Below are positions 21,079-34,658 of a DNA stretch of 64,000 bases, in pieces. Each line of letters opens with the position of its first letter. The stretch's first letter is position 1. The notes under the pieces were generated by a model. It was not told the DNA's origin. It made no database searches and saw only the letters and a list, made by a program, of their open reading frames with translations. Made by a program: the position numbers and the translations under genes. Source of the DNA: a virus. The stretch is from positions 1 through 64,000 of the IMG/VR virus record IMGVR_UViG_3300045988_152778. The stretch is one strand, 5' to 3'.

Positions 21079-21651
21079 ATGCCAAATTGGGTAACAAATC
21101 GAATTGTGTTTCACGGAAATCAGGAGAATATAGACAGGGTTCTTCAGTACATAAAAGGAAATGGGTCTGAAATTGATTTCAACAAAATTATTCCAATGCC
21201 CGACAACATTTATCGCGGTGATTTAGACAAGAGAGCGATGGGGCTGTACGGCTCAAATAATTGGTATGATTGGAGTGTGGCGAATTGGGGCACGAAATGG
21301 AATGCGCAATACTCCTCACTCGACAACAAGAATACGCTGTGGTTTGATACGGCGTGGAGCTGCCCTATACCCGTACTCAATAAGCTTGCAGAGATATGTT
21401 GCATAAACGATATTAGGTTTGAAGGGGAATGGGCTGATGAGGATCGCGGTTGTAATGTTGGTGTGTTTTGGAGCGACAACTGTGTAGACAAAAACTATGA
21501 TTTTTATTATGAATCCATAGACGACAAGACAGACGAAGCATATGACATATATGTAAAACTCAAAGGCGAGAGTGATTGTATGGGTAAGGACAGCGATGGA
21601 CATTGGATCCGTTACGATTGTGATACTTGCCCAAACAAAGACAAATGCTGA
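21079..21651 (+). CDS. DUF1281/Api92-like family protein (190 aa)
   Basis: MPNWVTNRI... and the ANWGTKWNA...FDTAWSCP motif typical of this phage/plasmid family (from memory). Confidence 0.45.
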   Translation: MPNWVTNRIVFHGNQENIDRVLQYIKGNGSEIDFNKIIPMPDNIYRGDLDKRAMGLYGSNNWYDWSVANWGTKWNAQYSSLDNKNTLWFDTAWSCPIPVLNKLAEICCINDIRFEGEWADEDRGCNVGVFWSDNCVDKNYDFYYESIDDKTDEAYDIYVKLKGESDCMGKDSDGHWIRYDCDTCPNKDKC

Positions 21652-21686
21652 AACAAAAAAATAACAAACAGAAAGGAGAGGTAAAA

Positions 21687-22691
21687 GTGAAAGCATATAA
21701 AGGTTTTGACAAAGACTTAAAGTGTCGAAATTTTCAATACGAAGTGGGAAAAGCTTATGAAGAAAAAGACGCGCAGATTTGTAAAACTGGATTTCATGCT
21801 TGTGAGAATCCTTTAGAAGTATTTAGGTATTATCCTCCGTGTAACGGGCATCGATATTGCGAAGTAGAGCAGAGCGGAACGCTTTCCAAAAGCGGTGATA
21901 GCTTTAAAGTTGCTTCTACAAAAATAAAGGTTGGCGCCGAACTTGGACTTCAAGGACTTATACAGGCTGGCATTTCGTTTATCCTCAATAAAATCAACCA
22001 GAAAGATGATGCAGTCGCAAATATAGGTTTTCGGTCAGCCGTCATAGATACGATTGTCCAAACAGCAGCCGTAAATATGGACTGTCAGTCAGCGGCAATA
22101 AATTCAGGTGATCAATCAGCAGCAGTAAATACAGGTAGCCAATCGGTCGCAGAAAACACAGGAGAATTGTCAACAGCAACGAATACAGGTAGCCAGTCAG
22201 TTGCAGTAAATTCGGGTAGTTATTCAGCAGTAGTAAATACGGGTGAGAGTTCAGCAGCAATGAACACAGGCGACTTGTCAACAGCAACGAACACGGGCAT
22301 TTATTCAGCGGCAGTAAATACAGGCTATCAATCAGTCGCCGTAAATACAGGTAGTTGGTCAGCGGCTATGAGTATAGGCATTCACTCAGTAGCAACGAAT
22401 ACAGGTAAACTATCAATAGCAAAAAATACAGGTCGTCAGTCAGCAGCAATTAATGTAGGTGATGGCTCTGCAGCGGAAGTGACAAATAGAGGGTCCGTTG
22501 CGATAGCAACAGGTCGTTATTCTAAAGCAAAAGCCAGTCTTGGCTCAGCGATCGTCCTTGTGGAGCGTGGTGATTGGAACGGTCACGTATATCCACTAAA
22601 CAATATCAAGGCGGTAATCGTAGATGGAAAGGTAATTAAGGCTGATACTTGGTACACTCTTAGAAATGGCGAATTTGTTGAGTGTGATTAA
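21687..22691 (+). CDS. Repeat protein: N-terminal KAYKGF...GFHACENP domain plus about 15 tandem 9-residue repeats (NTGxxSxAx), GTG start
   Basis: GTG preceded by GAAAGGAGAGG. Middle region NTGSQSVAENTGELSTATNTGSQSVAVNSGSYSAVVNTGESSAAMNTGDLSTATNTGIYSAAVNTGYQSVAVNTGSWSAAM... has strict 9-aa periodicity, consistent with a beta-solenoid. Confidence 0.55.
   Translation: MKAYKGFDKDLKCRNFQYEVGKAYEEKDAQICKTGFHACENPLEVFRYYPPCNGHRYCEVEQSGTLSKSGDSFKVASTKIKVGAELGLQGLIQAGISFILNKINQKDDAVANIGFRSAVIDTIVQTAAVNMDCQSAAINSGDQSAAVNTGSQSVAENTGELSTATNTGSQSVAVNSGSYSAVVNTGESSAAMNTGDLSTATNTGIYSAAVNTGYQSVAVNTGSWSAAMSIGIHSVATNTGKLSIAKNTGRQSAAINVGDGSAAEVTNRGSVAIATGRYSKAKASLGSAIVLVERGDWNGHVYPLNNIKAVIVDGKVIKADTWYTLRNGEFVECD
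22000..22480 (+). repeat. Tandem 27-nt coding repeats (about 15 copies) inside gene 21687..22691
   Basis: 27-nt periodicity under the 9-residue protein repeat. The antisense ORF 22042..22287 is a repeat artefact. Confidence 0.7.
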
Positions 22692-25801: not shown

Positions 25802-26176
25802 ATGGGATTTTTGGGTTCATTTCTTGGTCTGATTGGTGCTTCGGCGGTGTTTGTTGGAGCCGATGTTAAAGAGCGTTGGGACGAAATAGATAGAGAGCGG
25901 CAGCGCATTGCGGCAAATCCCGCACCGCCTCCGGAGATGAGGGGAAATTTAAGAGATAAATATGAATCTGAATGGCACAGAGGCGATAACACTCACTTCC
26001 CGGAAGAATATCTTCCAGCTCTTGAGAGCGATCCAGAGGTACTTTACTGGTGGATTGAGCTTCTTGCAGAGCGTGAGATAAGGCGTCAGGGTTACCGCGG
26101 TTATCCTATCAGTATTCAGGGCAATTTCAATCGAGTGTATAATGCTTGGAAGGAGCGTCAGAATTGGGTCAGATAA
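25802..26176 (+). CDS. Small membrane protein (124 aa)
   Basis: ATG after GAAAGGAG-N10. N-terminal TM MGFLGSFLGLIGASAVFVGA. Confidence 0.5.
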   Translation: MGFLGSFLGLIGASAVFVGADVKERWDEIDRERQRIAANPAPPPEMRGNLRDKYESEWHRGDNTHFPEEYLPALESDPEVLYWWIELLAEREIRRQGYRGYPISIQGNFNRVYNAWKERQNWVR

Positions 26177-27117
26177 CCAGTGTTGATGTTAATAAAGACA
26201 TACTTATTGATAGTCTGAAAGCCCAGAACGCAAGACTAAAAAAGCTCCTCCGCGAAACAGCAGAAGAGCGAGATAGATATAAATCCTTGTGGGAAACAAA
26301 TCGGATTCAAAATGAATTTTCAGAAAAGGAGCGAAAAGCAAATCGGCGATTAGAACAAGAGAAAAAGCAAGAGCGGCTGTTGTCCGGTGTAAAATCGGAT
26401 GGCGTTCCGGTAGCTCATGCGGCGGATTCGATTCGTTCCTATGATGAAATGTGTGTTGTACTGGATAAGCTCAAAAACACAGGACGAATGGGAATACGAA
26501 ACTGGGCTATGTTCCGTTGCGGCATTTGCTTCGGTCTTAGAGCAAGCGACCTCGTTAAATTAAAATGGGGTTGGATCATGGACGACGACGGCGAGTTCAG
26601 AGACCGTATACCCGTAGTCGAGAGCAAGACATCTAAAATCAATCGGTGTTTCATATCCGATGCGATAAAGGAAACGCTTACAGAATATCGCAAGTGGCTC
26701 GGCGGACGCAACTGTTCTCCCGATGATTATATCTTCTCGAAGAACAACGGCGGGAGACTACAGGAGCAAAGCTATTCACGATATCTCAAAAGCGCGGGAA
26801 AGGAAGCGGGGTTGCCGATACACATCTCGTCTCACACCATGAGGAAATCATTTGCCAATATAGTGCTGTGTTGTCACGACGGCGGTGCGAATGATTATGC
26901 TATGAGAGACTTACAGGGTATGCTCGGACATTCAGATGTAAGAATTACGATGAGCTACCTCAAAGACACAATCCTCAGATACGACGAAGCGAGAAAGGCG
27001 GTGTCAGATTTCGTCCTCGGAAAGACAGATATAAACGAGCTGGTTACTTCAAAACAGGTCTCCAATAATGAAATTTACGAGCTTTGCAAAGAAATGTTTG
27101 AAAAACAAGTTGCGTAA
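26164..27117 (+). CDS. Second tyrosine recombinase (phage-integrase/Xer-like), TTG start (alternative TTG at 26146)
   Basis: RASDLVKLKW (Arg I box), HISSHTMRKSFA (H-x-x-R box II), LGHSDVRITMSYL (catalytic Tyr region). N-terminal coiled-coil. GGAAGGAG-N8-TTG. Confidence 0.8.
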   Translation: MGQITSVDVNKDILIDSLKAQNARLKKLLRETAEERDRYKSLWETNRIQNEFSEKERKANRRLEQEKKQERLLSGVKSDGVPVAHAADSIRSYDEMCVVLDKLKNTGRMGIRNWAMFRCGICFGLRASDLVKLKWGWIMDDDGEFRDRIPVVESKTSKINRCFISDAIKETLTEYRKWLGGRNCSPDDYIFSKNNGGRLQEQSYSRYLKSAGKEAGLPIHISSHTMRKSFANIVLCCHDGGANDYAMRDLQGMLGHSDVRITMSYLKDTILRYDEARKAVSDFVLGKTDINELVTSKQVSNNEIYELCKEMFEKQVA

Positions 27118-28702: not shown

Positions 28703-28925
28703 GCTTCTCACTCTAATAGCTCACGAGGTTGTGTCTCGGAAATGTGTAAACAACATAGAGTTTGTCGGCTATGTTGCTCGGTGCAGTCAGTGTGGCGAAC
28801 CAATAGCAATCTACTATAAACTCGACGACGAGCTGAGGGTTTCGATTTTGCCGAGATTCAAAAGATATAAGGAACAGATAGAAAACAAATTAAGGAAAGG
28901 AAATGATTTATCAAGTGGAAAATAA
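28689..28925 (+). CDS. Small protein with CxxC zinc-ribbon (78 aa)
   Basis: ...VSRKCVNN...ARCSQCGEPIAIYY... Confidence 0.4.
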   Translation: MRKSKLLTLIAHEVVSRKCVNNIEFVGYVARCSQCGEPIAIYYKLDDELRVSILPRFKRYKEQIENKLRKGNDLSSGK

Positions 28926-29706
28926 AATGACATTATTTACGAACGAAGAGCTTGGAAATGTTAGGGCTTTGGAGATCGACGGCGAGCCGTATTTCGTCGG
29001 CAAGGATGTCGCCGAGATACTCGGATATAGTAATCCGCGAAAAGCAATCGGCGACCACGTAGACGATGAAGATAAAACCGATGGGGTAACGATTCGTGAC
29101 TCCATCGGTAGGGAGCAAAAACCCATAATCATCAACGAGTCAGGTCTTTACAGCCTTATCCTCTCAAGCAAACTCCCGAAAGCCAAAGAGTTCAAGCGCT
29201 GGGTAACGGCGGAAGTGCTTCCAGCAATCCGCAAAACAGGCGGCTATGTAAACGATACGAAACAGTTCGTCGATTACTACTTTGCGGACTGCAATACATA
29301 TGGGCGAGAAGCTATTACGCTTATGCTCAACGAAACAAAACGAATGGCAAATCAGCTAAAGGCTCAGGCTCCGAAGGTGCTGTTTGCCGAAGCAGTAGAA
29401 GGCTCGAAGACATCTATTCCAGTCGGCGACCTTGCGAAGATTATAAAGCAGAACGGCGTCGATATTGAACAGAATCGTCTCTTCTCGTGGCTGAGAATGA
29501 ACGACTATCTGATAAAGTCGGGTGACAGACGAAATATGCCAACACAGAAATCTATGGATTTGGGGTTATTTGAGGTTAAGATATCAACCTATTATCGACC
29601 CGACGGCACGGTAGATATTACGAAGACTCCAAAGGTTACGGGCAAGGGTCAGACCTACCTTATTAATAAGTTTTTGTCAAGCGCGAGAGGAGTAGAGTCG
29701 GCATAA
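28903..29706 (+). CDS. Intact Bro-N/KilA-C phage antirepressor
   Basis: Bro-N: FTNEELGNVRALEIDGEPYFVGKDVAEILGYSNPRKAIGDHV...KRWVTAEVLPAIRKTGGY. KilA-C: ...KVLFAEAVEGSKTSIPVGDLAKIIKQNGVDIEQNRLFSWLRMNDYLIK...YYRPDGTVDITKTPKVTGKGQTYL. Paralog of the frameshifted copy at 7823..8588. Confidence 0.85.
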   Translation: MIYQVENKMTLFTNEELGNVRALEIDGEPYFVGKDVAEILGYSNPRKAIGDHVDDEDKTDGVTIRDSIGREQKPIIINESGLYSLILSSKLPKAKEFKRWVTAEVLPAIRKTGGYVNDTKQFVDYYFADCNTYGREAITLMLNETKRMANQLKAQAPKVLFAEAVEGSKTSIPVGDLAKIIKQNGVDIEQNRLFSWLRMNDYLIKSGDRRNMPTQKSMDLGLFEVKISTYYRPDGTVDITKTPKVTGKGQTYLINKFLSSARGVESA

Positions 29707-29774
29707 TTAAAATTCTTATAGGCGGTAGTCCTTGTACTAAGTGGAGTATCGCTCAGAAAAACGGAAGAGAAGTT

Positions 29775-30845
29775 TTGCCTGAAGGTGTCGGTTGGGAGCT
29801 GTTCGAGAACTATCGGATAGCGAAAGATAAATTCCAGCCCGACATCTTTTTATATGAGAATAACAAGTCGGCGGCTCAGTCGATAAAAGACGCGATTTAC
29901 TCTGCTCTTGGTGGGGGCAAAGACTCATCAGTCCGGCTTACGCATATAAATAGCGCGTTGGTTTCGGCACAACATCGTGAGAGGTTTTATGTTACGAATT
30001 TTGGCGACATAGAACAACCGAAAGACAGAGGAATTTTGTTACGCACTGTACTTGAGACTGACCGGGCTACCGACCAGTTTAATTATTATAGGCTTGAATC
30101 GGTTGTACCAATCAACACTACCGCCGGCGGCAAAGCAAGGACTGTTAAGGCTCAATATCATCATAGCTCTATGGCTAACTTTGTTACAAATGGAGGTTAT
30201 CCCGCAACTGCGGTTGCAATGCCGATACGCATAGGAACTATAGAGAGCAATGTAGAAAATAAGTCGCACGACAGCAAACAATATCGTGTATATAGTCCCG
30301 ACGGAAAAGCAACTACGCTTTGTGGACAAGGCGGCGGAGTCGGCGCAAAAACTGGATTGTATGCTGTTCCTGTTGGCGGTAAAGGAAAGGAACTCCCCGT
30401 TTATGAGGTTAGAGATGGGCTTATAACTATCAAGGACAAACAATACCCGATTGAGCTCGCCGATGGCTATTACCTTATACGAAAGCTTACACCGTTAGAA
30501 TGTGAAAGACTGCAAACTCTTCCGGACGGTTATACGAGCGGAGTTAGTGATACTCAGCGATATCGTGCTATCGGCAACGGGTGGACGGCAGAGGTTATTA
30601 TACATATCTTGAATCATGCTCTTAAAGACATCCCGAGAGACGAAGAGCTTGTAGTCTTGTCACTTTACGACGGTATAGCAACCGGTCGGTATTGCTTGGA
30701 TAAAATGGGCTTTACGAATGTCAAGTATTATGCTTATGAAATAGACCCTTATGCGCAAAAAATAGCGATGTCAAATTACCCGGATATCGTGTGGTGCGGA
30801 GATGCGTTTCGGGTTAGGGATGATGATTGGAAAATTCCAGACTAA
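29775..30845 (+). CDS. DNA (cytosine-5)-methyltransferase with circularly permuted motif order (IV-VI-VIII-TRD-IX-X-I-II-III); possibly rearranged or non-functional
   Basis: Reading frame opens at 29670 just after the antirepressor stop. The catalytic IGGSPCTKWSIAQK (motif IV, PC dipeptide) is at 29721..29760 with no ATG/GTG/TTG upstream. The first canonical start, TTG 29775, lies after the PC motif. Then LYENN (VI), QHRERFYV (VIII), RKLTPLECERLQTLPDGYT (IX), QRYRAIGNGWTAEVI (X). The same ORF ends with VVLSLYDGIATG (I), YAYEID (II), GDAFRV (III)...DDWKIPD-stop. Confidence 0.55.
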   Translation: MPEGVGWELFENYRIAKDKFQPDIFLYENNKSAAQSIKDAIYSALGGGKDSSVRLTHINSALVSAQHRERFYVTNFGDIEQPKDRGILLRTVLETDRATDQFNYYRLESVVPINTTAGGKARTVKAQYHHSSMANFVTNGGYPATAVAMPIRIGTIESNVENKSHDSKQYRVYSPDGKATTLCGQGGGVGAKTGLYAVPVGGKGKELPVYEVRDGLITIKDKQYPIELADGYYLIRKLTPLECERLQTLPDGYTSGVSDTQRYRAIGNGWTAEVIIHILNHALKDIPRDEELVVLSLYDGIATGRYCLDKMGFTNVKYYAYEIDPYAQKIAMSNYPDIVWCGDAFRVRDDDWKIPD

Positions 30846-30894
30846 AAGGAATCGGGTTTTGATTTGAAAAATGAAAATGAAAAGGGGAGATGAA

Positions 30895-31497
30895 ATGGCT
30901 CAGGATTGGAGCGGCGATGCAAACTCTGTGTACAAAATTATCGGGGCGTCTAACCACTCAAACGAAAACAGGGCAGACGACGACTACTACGCGACTGACC
31001 CGAAGGCAGTTGAAGAGCTGCTGAAAAGAGAGAAATTTTCTCACTATGTGTGGGAACCTTGTTGTGGTGGAGGACACATATCAAAAGTGTTGGAAGCTCA
31101 TGGCTACGACGTTCTGTCGAGTGACATTGTGGATAGGGGTTGTCCAAATACATATGTGGCGGACTTCTTAAGTGTTGCTCCCCCTGTTGAGTGTATATCA
31201 CGCGATATAATCACAAACCCGCCGTACAAACGTGCCAAGAAATTCATAGAGAAAGCTTTGGAGATATCTATGGATTCAACTAAGATAGCGATGTTCCTAA
31301 AAACTACTTTTCTCGAAAGCAAAGGACGAAGAGAGTTTTTTCGTGAGAATCCGCCAAAATATGTATATGTTTTTTCAGACAGAATGAAGTGTGCCCCAAA
31401 CGGCGATTTTAGCAAAATAAAGTCGAGCGCAATATCGTATGCGTGGTTTATTTGGGAAAAGGGGTTCAAGGGCGAACCGAAAATTAGATGGATATAA
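30895..31497 (+). CDS. N6-adenine (or N4-cytosine) DNA methyltransferase, small type
   Basis: VWEPCCGGGHIS (SAM-binding motif I) and IITNPPYK ((D/N)PPY catalytic motif IV). ATG after AAAGGGGAGATGAA. Confidence 0.75.
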   Translation: MAQDWSGDANSVYKIIGASNHSNENRADDDYYATDPKAVEELLKREKFSHYVWEPCCGGGHISKVLEAHGYDVLSSDIVDRGCPNTYVADFLSVAPPVECISRDIITNPPYKRAKKFIEKALEISMDSTKIAMFLKTTFLESKGRREFFRENPPKYVYVFSDRMKCAPNGDFSKIKSSAISYAWFIWEKGFKGEPKIRWI

Positions 31498-31515
31498 AAT
31501 CAGGGAGGAAATCAA

Positions 31516-32423: not shown

Positions 32424-34658
32424 ATGAGGGTATTACTGTTGTTGCGCGGTAGTGCTGGGTGTGGTAAGTCAACATGGATTGAACAAAATGGACTTGAACC
32501 CTATACACTATCCGCCGACGAGATAAGGTTGATGTACGCTTCGCCCACTTTAAATGTTTGTGGTGAAGAGTGTATAAGTCAGTTAAATGACACTAAGGTC
32601 TGGAAGACACTCTTTCAGATTCTTGAGTCTCGAATGGAGCGAGGAGAGTTCACCGTTATTGACGCGACGAACTCCAAAACTTCCGAGATGAAGCGCTATG
32701 CGGAGCTTTGTAACCGTTATCGCTATAGGATTTATTGTGTAGACTTTACCGACATTCCTATTGAGGAAACCAAAAGGCGAAATAAAATGCGACCTATAGT
32801 TAAACAGGTTCCTGAAACGGCAATCGACAATATGTACGCTCGTTTCGCTACTCAGAAAATTCCGTCGGGGATAACCGTTATAAAACCGGATGAACTTTCA
32901 AGAGTGTGGTTCAAACCTATGGATGTTTCGAAATACGATGCGGTTCACTTTGTTGGAGATGTTCATGGCTGCTATACGGCACTCAAAGAAGCAATCGGGG
33001 ATGTAACTGAGAAACCTAATGAGCTGTTTGTGTTCTGCGGAGACTATACTGACAGAGGAGTTGAAAATGCAGAGGTAGTAAAGGAGCTTCTTCGCATCTA
33101 TAAAGAACCGAATGTATATCTCATAGAGGGAAATCATGAGAAACATATGTGGGTTTGGGCTAATGACGGAACTACCGGGTCAAAAGAGTTTGAGATGCAT
33201 ACAAGAGCTCAGCTTGAAAGCGCTTCTTTTACTAAAAAGGATGTTCGCAAACTTTACAGAAGTTTCGGGCAATGCGCCTATTATATATATCGTGGCAAAA
33301 CTATATTGGCTACACACGGTGGTCTTAGTACGCTGCCCAACAATCTCACGCTGGTAGCTACCGACCAAATGATTAAAGGCTCCGGGAATTATAGCGACGC
33401 CGATGTTGTTGATCAGTCTTTCTGTGAAAACACTGACGCTTATCAGGTGCATGGGCACAGAAATCTTAAAGGAAATCCCATTCAGGCTTGCAGAGCCTTC
33501 AATCTTGAGGGGAATGTTGAGTTTGGAGGCTCTATAAGAGTTGTTAGTTTTGTTGGCAATGAGATAAAGGTGAGCGAGTTTAAAAACAATATATATTTAC
33601 CGACTGAAGAGAGAATTGATTATACTGCAAAGATAAAAAAGAACGAGTCTGTTGCAGATGCTATTCTGGCTCTGAGAGGTAATAAGCAGGTAGTCGAGAA
33701 GCAGTTCGGTGATATCTCGTCTTTTAACTTCTCAAAACAGGCTTTCTTTGACAAGATATGGGATGAGCAGACGATTAGGGCACGAGGTTTGTATATCAAC
33801 ATTCCCAAAGGAAAAATAGTCGCAAGAGGCTATACAAAGTTCTTTAATGTAAACGAGCGACCGGAGACAAAATTTGATATGTTACAGCACAAGCTTAAGT
33901 TTCCTGTAACTGCGTATGTTAAAGAAAACGGGTTTCTCGGGTTAGTTTCATATAACGAGATAGATGATTCGCTGTTTGTTACAACGAAATCTAATCCGGA
34001 TGGTAATTATGCATCGTGGCTTAAAGAGATGATAGATAAGAAAATCCCTGTTGATACACAGCAGAAAATGAAAGAATTTTCAAGGGAGAACAATGTAACA
34101 TTTGTGTTTGAGTGTATTGATATGCAGAGAGATCCACACATAATTGATTATCCGGAAAATCATCTTTTCTTGCTTGATATTGTTTACAACGAGTTGAAGT
34201 TCAAAAAGTTCAGTTATGACGAGCTTATAAGTGTTGCAGACAAGTTCGGGCTCGAACACAAAGAGCGAGCTGTCGTAATTAACGATTGGCAGACATTCTT
34301 CGATTGGTATTACACAGTCACAGCACCTGATTATCTGTATAACAACAGGCATATAGAGGGATTTGTCGTCGAAGATGCCGACGGTTATATGGTTAAGCTT
34401 AAACTTGCTTACTATAATCTCTGGAAATACCTTCGCGGCGTTTCCTACAAGGTTCTTAGACGCGGACATCTTGATGGCAAGGAAACTTCGTCTCTTACAA
34501 CGTCATTAATGAATCAGTATTATGCGTGGCTTAAACGAATTTACGCAGAAACAGAGGATAAAGAGTCGATACCGCGTGATATCTGCTCGCTTAGAAAACT
34601 ATTCTACGCATCGGACGAAGGAAGAAATTTTACAAAGGAGGAAAGCAATAATGATTGA
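32424..34658 (+). CDS. Pnkp-like trifunctional RNA repair enzyme: P-loop polynucleotide kinase + calcineurin-type phosphoesterase + ATP-dependent ligase-like nucleotidyltransferase
   Basis: N-terminus LLLRGSAGCGKST (Walker A). Middle HFVGDVHGCY...FCGDYTDRG...IEGNHE...ATHGG...HGH (binuclear metallophosphoesterase set). C-terminal domain with a ligase motif-I-like AYVKENGFLG (K-x-N-G). Same domain order as the Clostridium thermocellum Pnkp RNA-repair protein (from memory). Confidence 0.6.
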   Translation: MRVLLLLRGSAGCGKSTWIEQNGLEPYTLSADEIRLMYASPTLNVCGEECISQLNDTKVWKTLFQILESRMERGEFTVIDATNSKTSEMKRYAELCNRYRYRIYCVDFTDIPIEETKRRNKMRPIVKQVPETAIDNMYARFATQKIPSGITVIKPDELSRVWFKPMDVSKYDAVHFVGDVHGCYTALKEAIGDVTEKPNELFVFCGDYTDRGVENAEVVKELLRIYKEPNVYLIEGNHEKHMWVWANDGTTGSKEFEMHTRAQLESASFTKKDVRKLYRSFGQCAYYIYRGKTILATHGGLSTLPNNLTLVATDQMIKGSGNYSDADVVDQSFCENTDAYQVHGHRNLKGNPIQACRAFNLEGNVEFGGSIRVVSFVGNEIKVSEFKNNIYLPTEERIDYTAKIKKNESVADAILALRGNKQVVEKQFGDISSFNFSKQAFFDKIWDEQTIRARGLYINIPKGKIVARGYTKFFNVNERPETKFDMLQHKLKFPVTAYVKENGFLGLVSYNEIDDSLFVTTKSNPDGNYASWLKEMIDKKIPVDTQQKMKEFSRENNVTFVFECIDMQRDPHIIDYPENHLFLLDIVYNELKFKKFSYDELISVADKFGLEHKERAVVINDWQTFFDWYYTVTAPDYLYNNRHIEGFVVEDADGYMVKLKLAYYNLWKYLRGVSYKVLRRGHLDGKETSSLTTSLMNQYYAWLKRIYAETEDKESIPRDICSLRKLFYASDEGRNFTKEESNND

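Follow-up and report, generated by a model that had tools for sequence, protein, structure and literature searches.

To our knowledge, reference work on C5-cytosine DNA methyltransferases (C5-MTases) treats the motif order I to X as nearly universal, with permutation in the variable region as the one natural type of exception. In the plant enzyme DRM, which is eukaryotic, carries UBA domains, and acts in RNA-directed DNA methylation, motifs VI-X come first and motifs I-V second, so that the chain is broken between V and VI. The gene considered here lies at positions 29703 to 30845 (+ strand) of a 64,000-nucleotide stretch of viral DNA (IMG/VR record IMGVR_UViG_3300045988_152778, positions 1 to 64,000; hereafter the window) and comprises 380 codons plus a TAA. 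It encodes a putative C5-MTase that is broken at another point, between motifs III and IV (III|IV). The natural bacterial permutants M.BssHII, M.Alw26I, M2.Eco31I, M.Esp3I, and M2.BsaI (“Type H”) have their N terminus in the variable region and the order IX-X-I-VIII. In a 2018 survey of REBASE, natural C5-MTase permutations were found only in the variable region (PMC5944983). Ten permutation types were engineered in M.MpeI and M.SssI, and enzymes with the N terminus between motifs II and III or between III and IV were active (PMC5944983). Permutants of this kind, namely, Types B and C of cpM.MpeI and cpM.SssI and the M.HaeIII permutants obtained by directed evolution, have fused native termini. 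They differ from the window protein in being laboratory constructs with unrelated parent enzymes, and their activity indicates that the topology is compatible with catalysis. Canonical-order relatives are found in phages: gp12 of Roseobacter phage CRP-9 (MW514246) and NVP1133O_50 of Vibrio phage 1.133.O (MG592504) are Dnmt3-like orphan C5-MTases, and the window enzyme is likewise an orphan.

In the window protein the motifs run IV-V-VI-VIII, target-recognition region, IX-X-I-II-III. Its first motif is therefore IV and its last is III, whereas the CRP-9 and Vibrio phage proteins have the order I-X and ordinary termini. The extent of the frame (29670 to 30845), this motif order, and the coordinates of the features were as had been described in an initial reading of the DNA made without database searches (the sequence-only reading). 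The frame opens at 29670, right behind a TAA at 29667 to 29669, and closes with the TAA at 30843 to 30845. Against the Pfam profile PF00145, residues 13 to 315 of the frame were aligned to profile positions 62 to 320 of 324 with 77 bits (cutoff, 22), and the C-terminal 76 residues gave a weak match to positions 3 to 59 (13.9 bits, E 0.036). When an artificial de-permuted protein was made by placing the C-terminal piece first, the profile was matched in one stretch from position 3 to 320, and the score rose from 77 bits in the native order to 93.4 bits. The same behavior was seen with BLASTP against CRP-9 gp12, where the native order gave two high-scoring segment pairs (residues 2 to 303 on 77 to 361 and 318 to 372 on 3 to 57) and the de-permuted protein gave a single end-to-end pair with 35% identity and an E value of 2e-50. 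The piece carrying motifs I to III was 51% identical to residues 3 to 57 of gp12, and residues 315 to 378 matched the N-terminal part (positions 53 to 113) of the canonical profile phrog_363. In a phmmer search of PDB chains, DNMT3A was recovered in rotated order, with query residues 313 to 369, 4 to 107, and 244 to 303 on DNMT3A residues 14 to 71, 86 to 188, and 227 to 285, respectively. The sequence-only reading had noted that joining the end of the frame to its start recreates the canonical III-to-IV spacing; the joined distance was 18 amino acids (GDA plus 12 residues, then 6 residues before GGSPC), compared with 17 in the canonical Vibrio phage relative. Together with the signatures described below, these data indicate that the predicted protein is a C5-MTase in circularly permuted form, opened between motifs III and IV.

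The catalytic signatures of PF00145 were all present. Motif IV (ILIGGSPC, 29712 to 29735) contains GGSPC at residues 7 to 11, with the catalytic Cys codon TGT at 29733 to 29735, and aligns to LVIGGSPC of DNMT3A. Motif VI, an ENV-like E52-N53-N54, lies at 29856 to 29864, and motif VIII, the QxRxR element Q90-H-R92-E-R94, lies at 29970 to 29984 and aligns to AAHRARYF of DNMT3A. The variable or target-recognition region follows at residues ∼120 to 215 (30060 to 30347); it varies in length, and its pLDDT was below 50 for residues 120 to 191 and 207 to 215. Motifs IX (RKLTPLECERLQTLPDGYT) and X (GNGWTAEVIIHIL), at 30480 to 30611, align to residues 271 to 314 of M.HhaI in addition to the DNMT3A segment given above. 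They are joined to motif I by the linker NHALKDIPRDEEL (30612 to 30650). Canonical relatives end in ...HIMKGMM and begin with MNVLSLFDG, and the linker is the predicted counterpart of the fused ancestral C and N termini. The AdoMet-binding half, with motifs I (VVLSLYDGIATG), II (YAYEID), and III (GDAFRV), stands last at 30651 to 30815 and retains the signatures LYDGIATG (residues 321 to 328), E346/D348, and G366-D367. In an alignment of 59 family members, G7, G8, S9, and P10 were invariant, and C11 was conserved in at least 90%. GGSPC, ENN, QxRxR, motif IX, GNGW, the DG of motif I, the E/D of motif II, and the GD of motif III were invariant or nearly so, the invariant residues including E52, N53, N54, Q90, R92, R94, Q271, T272, P274, G291, G293, and W294 and, in motifs I to III, V318, S320, Y322, D323, G324, E346, D348, G366, and A368. 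An AlphaFold model built with the 59 family sequences had a pTM of 0.75. Both pieces of the catalytic domain reached pLDDT values of 85 to 97, the C-terminal beta-alpha-beta-alpha-beta unit of motifs I to III was well predicted (90 to 97), and definition was low only in the variable region. The top solved-structure matches of this model in a Foldseek search of the PDB were plant DRM, M.HhaI, and DNMT3A/B. On these features, the window protein would be expected to transfer methyl groups to the C5 position of cytosine. It scored 75.4 bits against NCBIfam TIGR00675 (dcm superfamily), below the cutoff of 100.65, with only positions 62 to 327 aligned; this shortfall is to be expected from the permutation and is not evidence against homology.

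Comparison with the known enzymes places the sequence closest to the Dnmt3-like branch, and the window enzyme is predicted to work like any C5-MTase. With the CRP-9 and Vibrio phage proteins it has in common the signatures VLSLFDG..., AEID, GD, LLIGGSPC, LENV/YENN, SAQNRxR, RKLTPxExERLQTxPDGYT, and GNGWTVxVI. Among solved structures, the best sequence matches were the catalytic domains of mammalian DNMT3A and DNMT3B (E ∼1e-9), which share with it motif I VLSLFDGIATG, motif IV IGGSPC, and motif VIII SAxHRxRYF. The DNMT3 enzymes differ in their canonical order, regulatory N-terminal domains, and short target-recognition region, and the identity is low; neither oligomerization nor CpG specificity is implied for the window protein. 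Plant DRM/DRM2 (PDB 4onj, 4onq, and 7l4f) is likewise a permuted Dnmt3-like enzyme with motif X directly before motif I, and tobacco DRM matched window residues 259 to 338 across the X-to-I junction in one stretch (phmmer, PDB chains). This junction alone is shared, however; in the window protein motifs IV and V are at the N terminus (motif IV at residues 4 to 11), and the break is at III|IV, which sets it apart from the DRM arrangement. The Type H enzymes also have motif X before motif I, but the III|IV break distinguishes the window protein from them as well. No natural III|IV permutant was found described in the full-text literature, a scope that lies outside REBASE and reviews in subscription journals, so a prior description may exist there. 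The III|IV topology thus looks like a natural variant, not described before, within a known enzyme class.

The permuted order was found to be that of a large family. Scans of viral contigs and of one genome per species identified 80 and 76 loci, respectively, that had the same order, colinear with the query, at 41 to 96% identity. Among the 120 closest database clusters (69 to 95% identity), the same order was seen with 95 to 100% query coverage for most; clusters called from a downstream TTG and a few fragments covered 82 to 91%. A motif-order classifier assigned 93 of the 120 closest database matches to the permuted order, and 117 of 120 when a member with 41% identity to the window protein served as the query, the remainder in both cases being truncated gene calls. 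An exhaustive search of 50%-identity representatives returned 937 clusters at an E value of ≤1e-30. Of the best 150 of these, 68 were classified as permuted and 22 as canonical; the others were fragments, two clusters in which motif IV is flanked by a motif I on either side, and one cluster left unclassified. In a neighbor-joining tree of de-permuted cores, computed without support values, 72 of 73 permuted proteins formed one clade and 24 of 24 canonical proteins another, which suggests a single origin of the permuted family. Most members start with M-IKLLIGGSPC, and the C termini differ among diverged members. The named hosts were mostly gut or rumen Clostridia (Oscillospiraceae, Acutalibacteraceae, Ruminococcus, Lachnospiraceae, Christensenellaceae, Butyricicoccus pullicaecorum, and Criibacterium bergeronii), the exceptions being a few bins of metagenome-assembled genomes labeled Bacteroidales, Bacteroides, or Alphaproteobacteria. 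The sequence-only reading had proposed a search for a normal I-to-X gene in related prophages. Close relatives proved to be permuted, and the canonical order was found in the marine phages CRP-9 and Vibrio 1.133.O, whose genes were used as the canonical outgroup. The related phages thus present the permuted order as an established family with a normal start, an outcome that the same reading had foreseen as one that would overturn its proposal.

Places in cultured phages that tblastn reported as colinear at 94 to 98% coverage were rejected as family members, since the translated CRP-9 and Vibrio 1.133.O genes were canonical I-X; the false colinearity arose because the tool joined two pieces of canonical genes. 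The closest GenBank phage record was Phage nd4 (OR777945; L164, 2501 to 4177), with 51% identity over residues 1 to 378 in a protein of 558 amino acids annotated merely as a hypothetical protein. C-terminal extensions of 150 to 250 amino acids past motif III were observed in L034 to L039, L042, L048, L052, L063, L074, L090, and L091 (loci) and in P0174 and P0209 (clusters), and two of the C-terminally extended members had a precomputed match to PF25680.

The start of the gene is unusual. From 29670 onward, no ATG, GTG, or TTG occurs in frame before the TTG at 29775 to 29777, the first canonical start codon and the one picked by gene callers. It lies 14 codons past the Cys codon of GGSPC, so that a protein begun there would lack the catalytic Cys; on both points the sequence-only reading held up. 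That reading had also argued that an ATA or ATT behind the Shine-Dalgarno-like tract GAGAGGAG would be needed to include the Cys. The tract lies at 29685 to 29692, with ATA (29703 to 29705) 10 nucleotides (nt) and ATT (29706 to 29708) 13 nt downstream, and the family comparison upheld the ATA and not the ATT. When 136 loci were anchored on GGSPC and the codon six positions upstream was tabulated, this start column contained ATG in 73 loci, ATA in 23, GTG in 5, and TTG in 3. An ATG one codon further upstream was present in 14 loci, and the remaining loci had leaders of 16 to 22 codons. The window ATA falls exactly in the start column. In locus L165, which has the same gene order as the window (SLT lysozyme, two 78-amino-acid genes, antirepressor, methyltransferase, 201-amino-acid methyltransferase, and Band_7), the 86 nt upstream are identical, and ATG versus ATA is the sole difference there and in the start region (GGCATGATT in L165, GGCATAATT in the window). 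In L165 the antirepressor TGA overlaps the methyltransferase ATG as ATGA, and in the window the antirepressor stop TAA (29704 to 29706) overlaps the start codon as ATAA. The canonical start was therefore lost through a G-to-A change at 29705, by which the antirepressor gene keeps a stop and the methyltransferase gene is left with ATA.

Several features of the ATA loci are consistent with use of this codon. A GGAG/GAGG tract was present 7 to 11 nt upstream in each of the 23 loci whose start column contains ATA, in the contexts GGC-ATA-ATT and AGT-ATA-AAG and in two members ∼50% identical to the window protein. The tract was kept also where a 245-bp insert parts the methyltransferase from the antirepressor gene, so that the proposed start is independent of the ATAA overlap. 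In the TSIKK-type loci (L004, L010, L018, L022, and L023), a stop (TGA in L004 and L010) stands just ahead of TS-ATA, so that the frame includes only two codons before the ATA, and ATA is therefore the sole near-cognate codon there able to include motif IV. Over the 23 codons that separate ATA from TTG, dN/dS within the ATA clade was 0.062, compared with 0.07 to 0.10 for the rest of the gene; the segment is therefore conserved as protein, under purifying selection, in lineages without a canonical start. Starts of this kind are documented in Firmicutes. In Staphylococcus aureus, infC, ccpN, and citZ have AUA starts with extended Shine-Dalgarno motifs and are translated at ∼10 to 30% of the AUG level, and ccpN is conserved in Bacillus subtilis (PMC13009471). 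These genes, together with cvfC1 (AUA/AUU starts), combine a weak near-cognate start with a strong or extended Shine-Dalgarno motif and attenuated translation, as is proposed for the window; their starts were mapped by retapamulin ribosome profiling, whereas the window start is predicted from comparative sequence. The published Firmicute AUA starts make the ATA mechanism plausible in this group. An ATG>ATA change in rpoS is reported to lower RpoS (PMC12864459).

Taken together, the data make it probable, in our judgment, that the window gene is an intact member of an old, monophyletic, Dnmt3-like family of permuted C5-MTases in temperate phages of gut Clostridia and that it is most likely functional, with low-level translation from ATA. 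Functional initiation at ATA 29703, taken by itself, is rated reasonably likely. A number of points weigh against this reading. For the window gene and for every family member, translation from ATA and methylation are inferred from sequence alone. The structural matches had TM-scores of only ∼0.4 to 0.5 and add little beyond the sequence evidence, the low scores being due to the permutation, since the alignment is sequential, and to the low-confidence variable region. The pairs used for dN/dS lacked phylogenetic independence. A single transition in ATG would be expected to yield ATA, so that the repeated occurrence of ATA speaks less strongly for selection than its counts would imply. The window is also one base from the ATG allele, so that this allele could be a recent loss of function. 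Finally, an in-frame TTG lies upstream in the L001-type loci, a GTG in L107, and a TTG in L097; ATA is thus not the sole option in every locus.

The alternatives were weighed on the same evidence. If the G-to-A change had inactivated the gene, there would be no product or only a truncated, Cys-less protein from TTG 29775, and the frame would be intact because the loss is recent. This would fit the poor performance of ATA as an initiator in Escherichia coli, where it gives ∼0.02 to 3% of the AUG level (bioRxiv 10.1101/063800), the single substitution that separates the window from L165, and the choice of TTG 29775 by gene callers. It is nonetheless unlikely, since the 23 ATA loci have diverged by many synonymous changes while dN/dS has stayed near 0.06 for the motif IV codons before the TTG, the Shine-Dalgarno tracts stand at the right distance in all of them, insert-bearing loci included, and ATA-type starts outnumber ATG at the start column among the 120 closest clusters. 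Initiation at ATT 29706 instead of ATA 29703 would retain the catalytic Cys as well, ATT also being near-cognate and present at the family start column in the L167/P0098-type lineage. We regard it as improbable, given that the family ATG aligns with the ATA and not the ATT, that the next codon in the SIKK-type ATA loci is AAG, and that a spacing of 10 nt from the tract fits better than 13 nt.

Two further explanations bypass the start codon or the permutation itself. The methyltransferase frame is −1 relative to the antirepressor gene and overlaps it by 37 nt (29670 to 29706), and a T-run, AAG TTT TTG, lies at 29668 to 29676, so that a −1 ribosomal frameshift could in principle yield an antirepressor-methyltransferase fusion that includes the catalytic Cys. 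G TTT TTG is, however, not an X XXY YYZ heptamer, and in L004-type loci the −1 frame is closed by a TGA two codons before the ATA, leaving a 10-nt overlap with no slippery site. In the L001-type loci the two genes are separated by the 245-bp insert, in the L005-type loci the gene upstream is that of a dUTPase and not the antirepressor, and L165 has a normal ATG behind the same upstream sequence; a frameshift is accordingly very improbable. The permuted order could also have come from a local rearrangement or an assembly artifact, such as a collapsed tandem duplicate recombined at AAAATTC, a heptamer that occurs near both ends of the gene (29709 and 30831), whose joining restores the canonical spacing. 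The sequence-only reading had favored a tandem duplication and deletion or a circular permutation at this repeat. Circular permutation is retained here, but the local event at AAAATTC is not, as the heptamer occurs in the window at chance frequency (21 observed versus 21.4 expected). Nor is a recent event supported: more than 130 independent loci, with identities as low as 41% and differing C termini, have this topology, and the permuted proteins form one clade. An artifact, which that reading had named as a possible refutation, is countered by the recurrence of the topology in assemblies made independently (IMG/VR, Logan, ENA, and NCBI genomes), and a local origin of either kind is hardly credible. 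Stop-codon recoding was rejected from the letters themselves, the upstream in-frame stop being TAA and a normal ATG allele being in existence.

Further observations concern the start region in other family members. A second kind of noncanonical start was seen in the lineage of L167 (∼1480 to 1520; P0098 type, with P0067, P0080, P0099, P0100, and P0106), which has ATT at the family start column and for which callers choose a TTG one codon ahead of GGSPC, so that the called proteins read MGGSPC.... A start of MPEGVGW or MPKGVGW was seen in 23 of the 120 closest clusters; they were called from the downstream TTG and so lack the catalytic Cys (P0056, P0059, P0068, P0072, P0075, P0076, P0079, P0081, P0083, P0087, P0091 to P0094, P0097, P0101, P0102, P0109, P0112 to P0115, and P0118). 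The ∼245-bp insert between the antirepressor stop and the methyltransferase ATA was found at L001 2766 to 3012 and in L002, L003, L010, L013, L017, L020 to L023, L025, L026, and L059 but not in the window. The insert ends in inverted repeats of 48 nt, which are 79% complementary and 151 nt apart; similar short sequences flank it on both sides, and it duplicates the Shine-Dalgarno tract. An Rfam scan of the insert in L001-type loci gave no match. A MITE-like mobile element and a structured RNA are both conceivable. The TTG selected by gene callers in the L001-type loci was considered as the true start and rejected: this TTG precedes the Shine-Dalgarno tract, which stands 11 nt ahead of the ATA, and the same TTG frame is closed in L010, L022, and L023 by a stop two codons before the ATA.

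In this temperate phage the gene is part of a conserved module, early or accessory in nature, that includes an integrase (26146 to 27117), an SLT lysozyme, the antirepressor, two methyltransferases, an SPFH protein, and a kinase-phosphatase-RNA ligase fusion. The antirepressor gene (28903 to 29706, + strand) encodes Bro-N and ANT/KilAC domains (Pfam Bro-N, 2.6e-30; ANT, 1.1e-33) and has the same synteny in L001, L004, and L165. No promoter-like or terminator-like site was found on the + strand between it and the methyltransferase gene, and a megablast search of 28900 to 31500 against GenBank phages gave no match. The adjacent second DNA methyltransferase gene (30871 to 31497, + strand) belongs to the same module and is kept as a neighbor in L001, L004, L005, and L165. 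Its product matched phrog_799 (“DNA methyltransferase,” 1e-69) and is a 208-amino-acid protein that contains the motifs EPCCGGG and NPPY; all models of Pfam and NCBIfam stayed below threshold, the best being Dam (E 0.008). Farther downstream, 32424 to 34658 (+ strand) encodes a single 744-amino-acid polypeptide with an AAA_33 kinase, a calcineurin-like phosphoesterase, and a T4 Rnl1-type RNA ligase, and related phages keep this gene behind the methyltransferases. The polypeptide resembles a fused RNA repair enzyme of the Pnkp/Rnl type, for which a role in countering host anticodon nucleases is plausible. Upstream in the same prophage, a 354-amino-acid open reading frame with an N-terminal DUF7666 domain (1.5e-34) lies at 21627 to 22691 (+ strand).

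From these data, a course of events can be proposed. A canonical I-X phage enzyme was probably the ancestor of the family, which would have originated a single time, through tandem duplication followed by trimming, and not at the present locus. The family polypeptide would begin at the motif IV beta-strand, run through motifs V to VIII, the target-recognition region, and motifs IX and X, and pass by a linker of ∼12 residues to motifs I to III, with the AdoMet-binding half supplied last. In the window, the ancestral ATG would have overlapped the antirepressor stop as ATGA until the single G-to-A change at 29705 produced ATA and preserved the stop. Translation would still start from ATA 29703, driven by the GAGAGGAG tract and possibly coupled to the terminating ribosome, at a fraction of the level given by ATG. 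The product would be a full-length enzyme that methylates cytosines of the phage (and host), beside the adjacent second methyltransferase. Its most likely role, given the gene context and the known phage orphan methyltransferases, is that of an orphan methyltransferase shielding phage DNA from host restriction, with its specificity set by an exchangeable variable region; no restriction endonuclease gene was identified among the neighboring genes examined. Among relatives otherwise 70 to 95% identical, the variable region (30060 to 30347) swaps whole cassettes, which suggests modular exchange of specificity. Protein lengths in the family were observed to range from 334 to 435 amino acids, with distinct inserts in P0086/P0110, P0035, and P0120. 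Only tentatively, and with slightly more doubt than belief, would we extend the proposal to a natural III|IV-permuted family in which one lineage repeatedly swaps ATG for ATA or ATT behind a strong Shine-Dalgarno tract, keeping methyltransferase expression heritably low.

The window gene itself is an ordinary member of a large family, and the accepted view of the job of such enzymes in phages is unchanged by the findings. Their consequences for annotation are more direct. ATA starts lead to downstream-TTG calls, and this systematic error has deposited proteins without the catalytic cysteine, as in the 23 clusters above; in addition, curated full-length models score the family below threshold. 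The ATGA-to-ATAA change illustrates how one transition can keep an upstream stop while attenuating the downstream gene. For the enzyme class, the family offers natural sequences for studying a Rossmann-fold AdoMet site with its first three strands supplied last, and the abundance of natural III|IV enzymes would mean that evolution has reached a topology so far obtained only by laboratory evolution and design.

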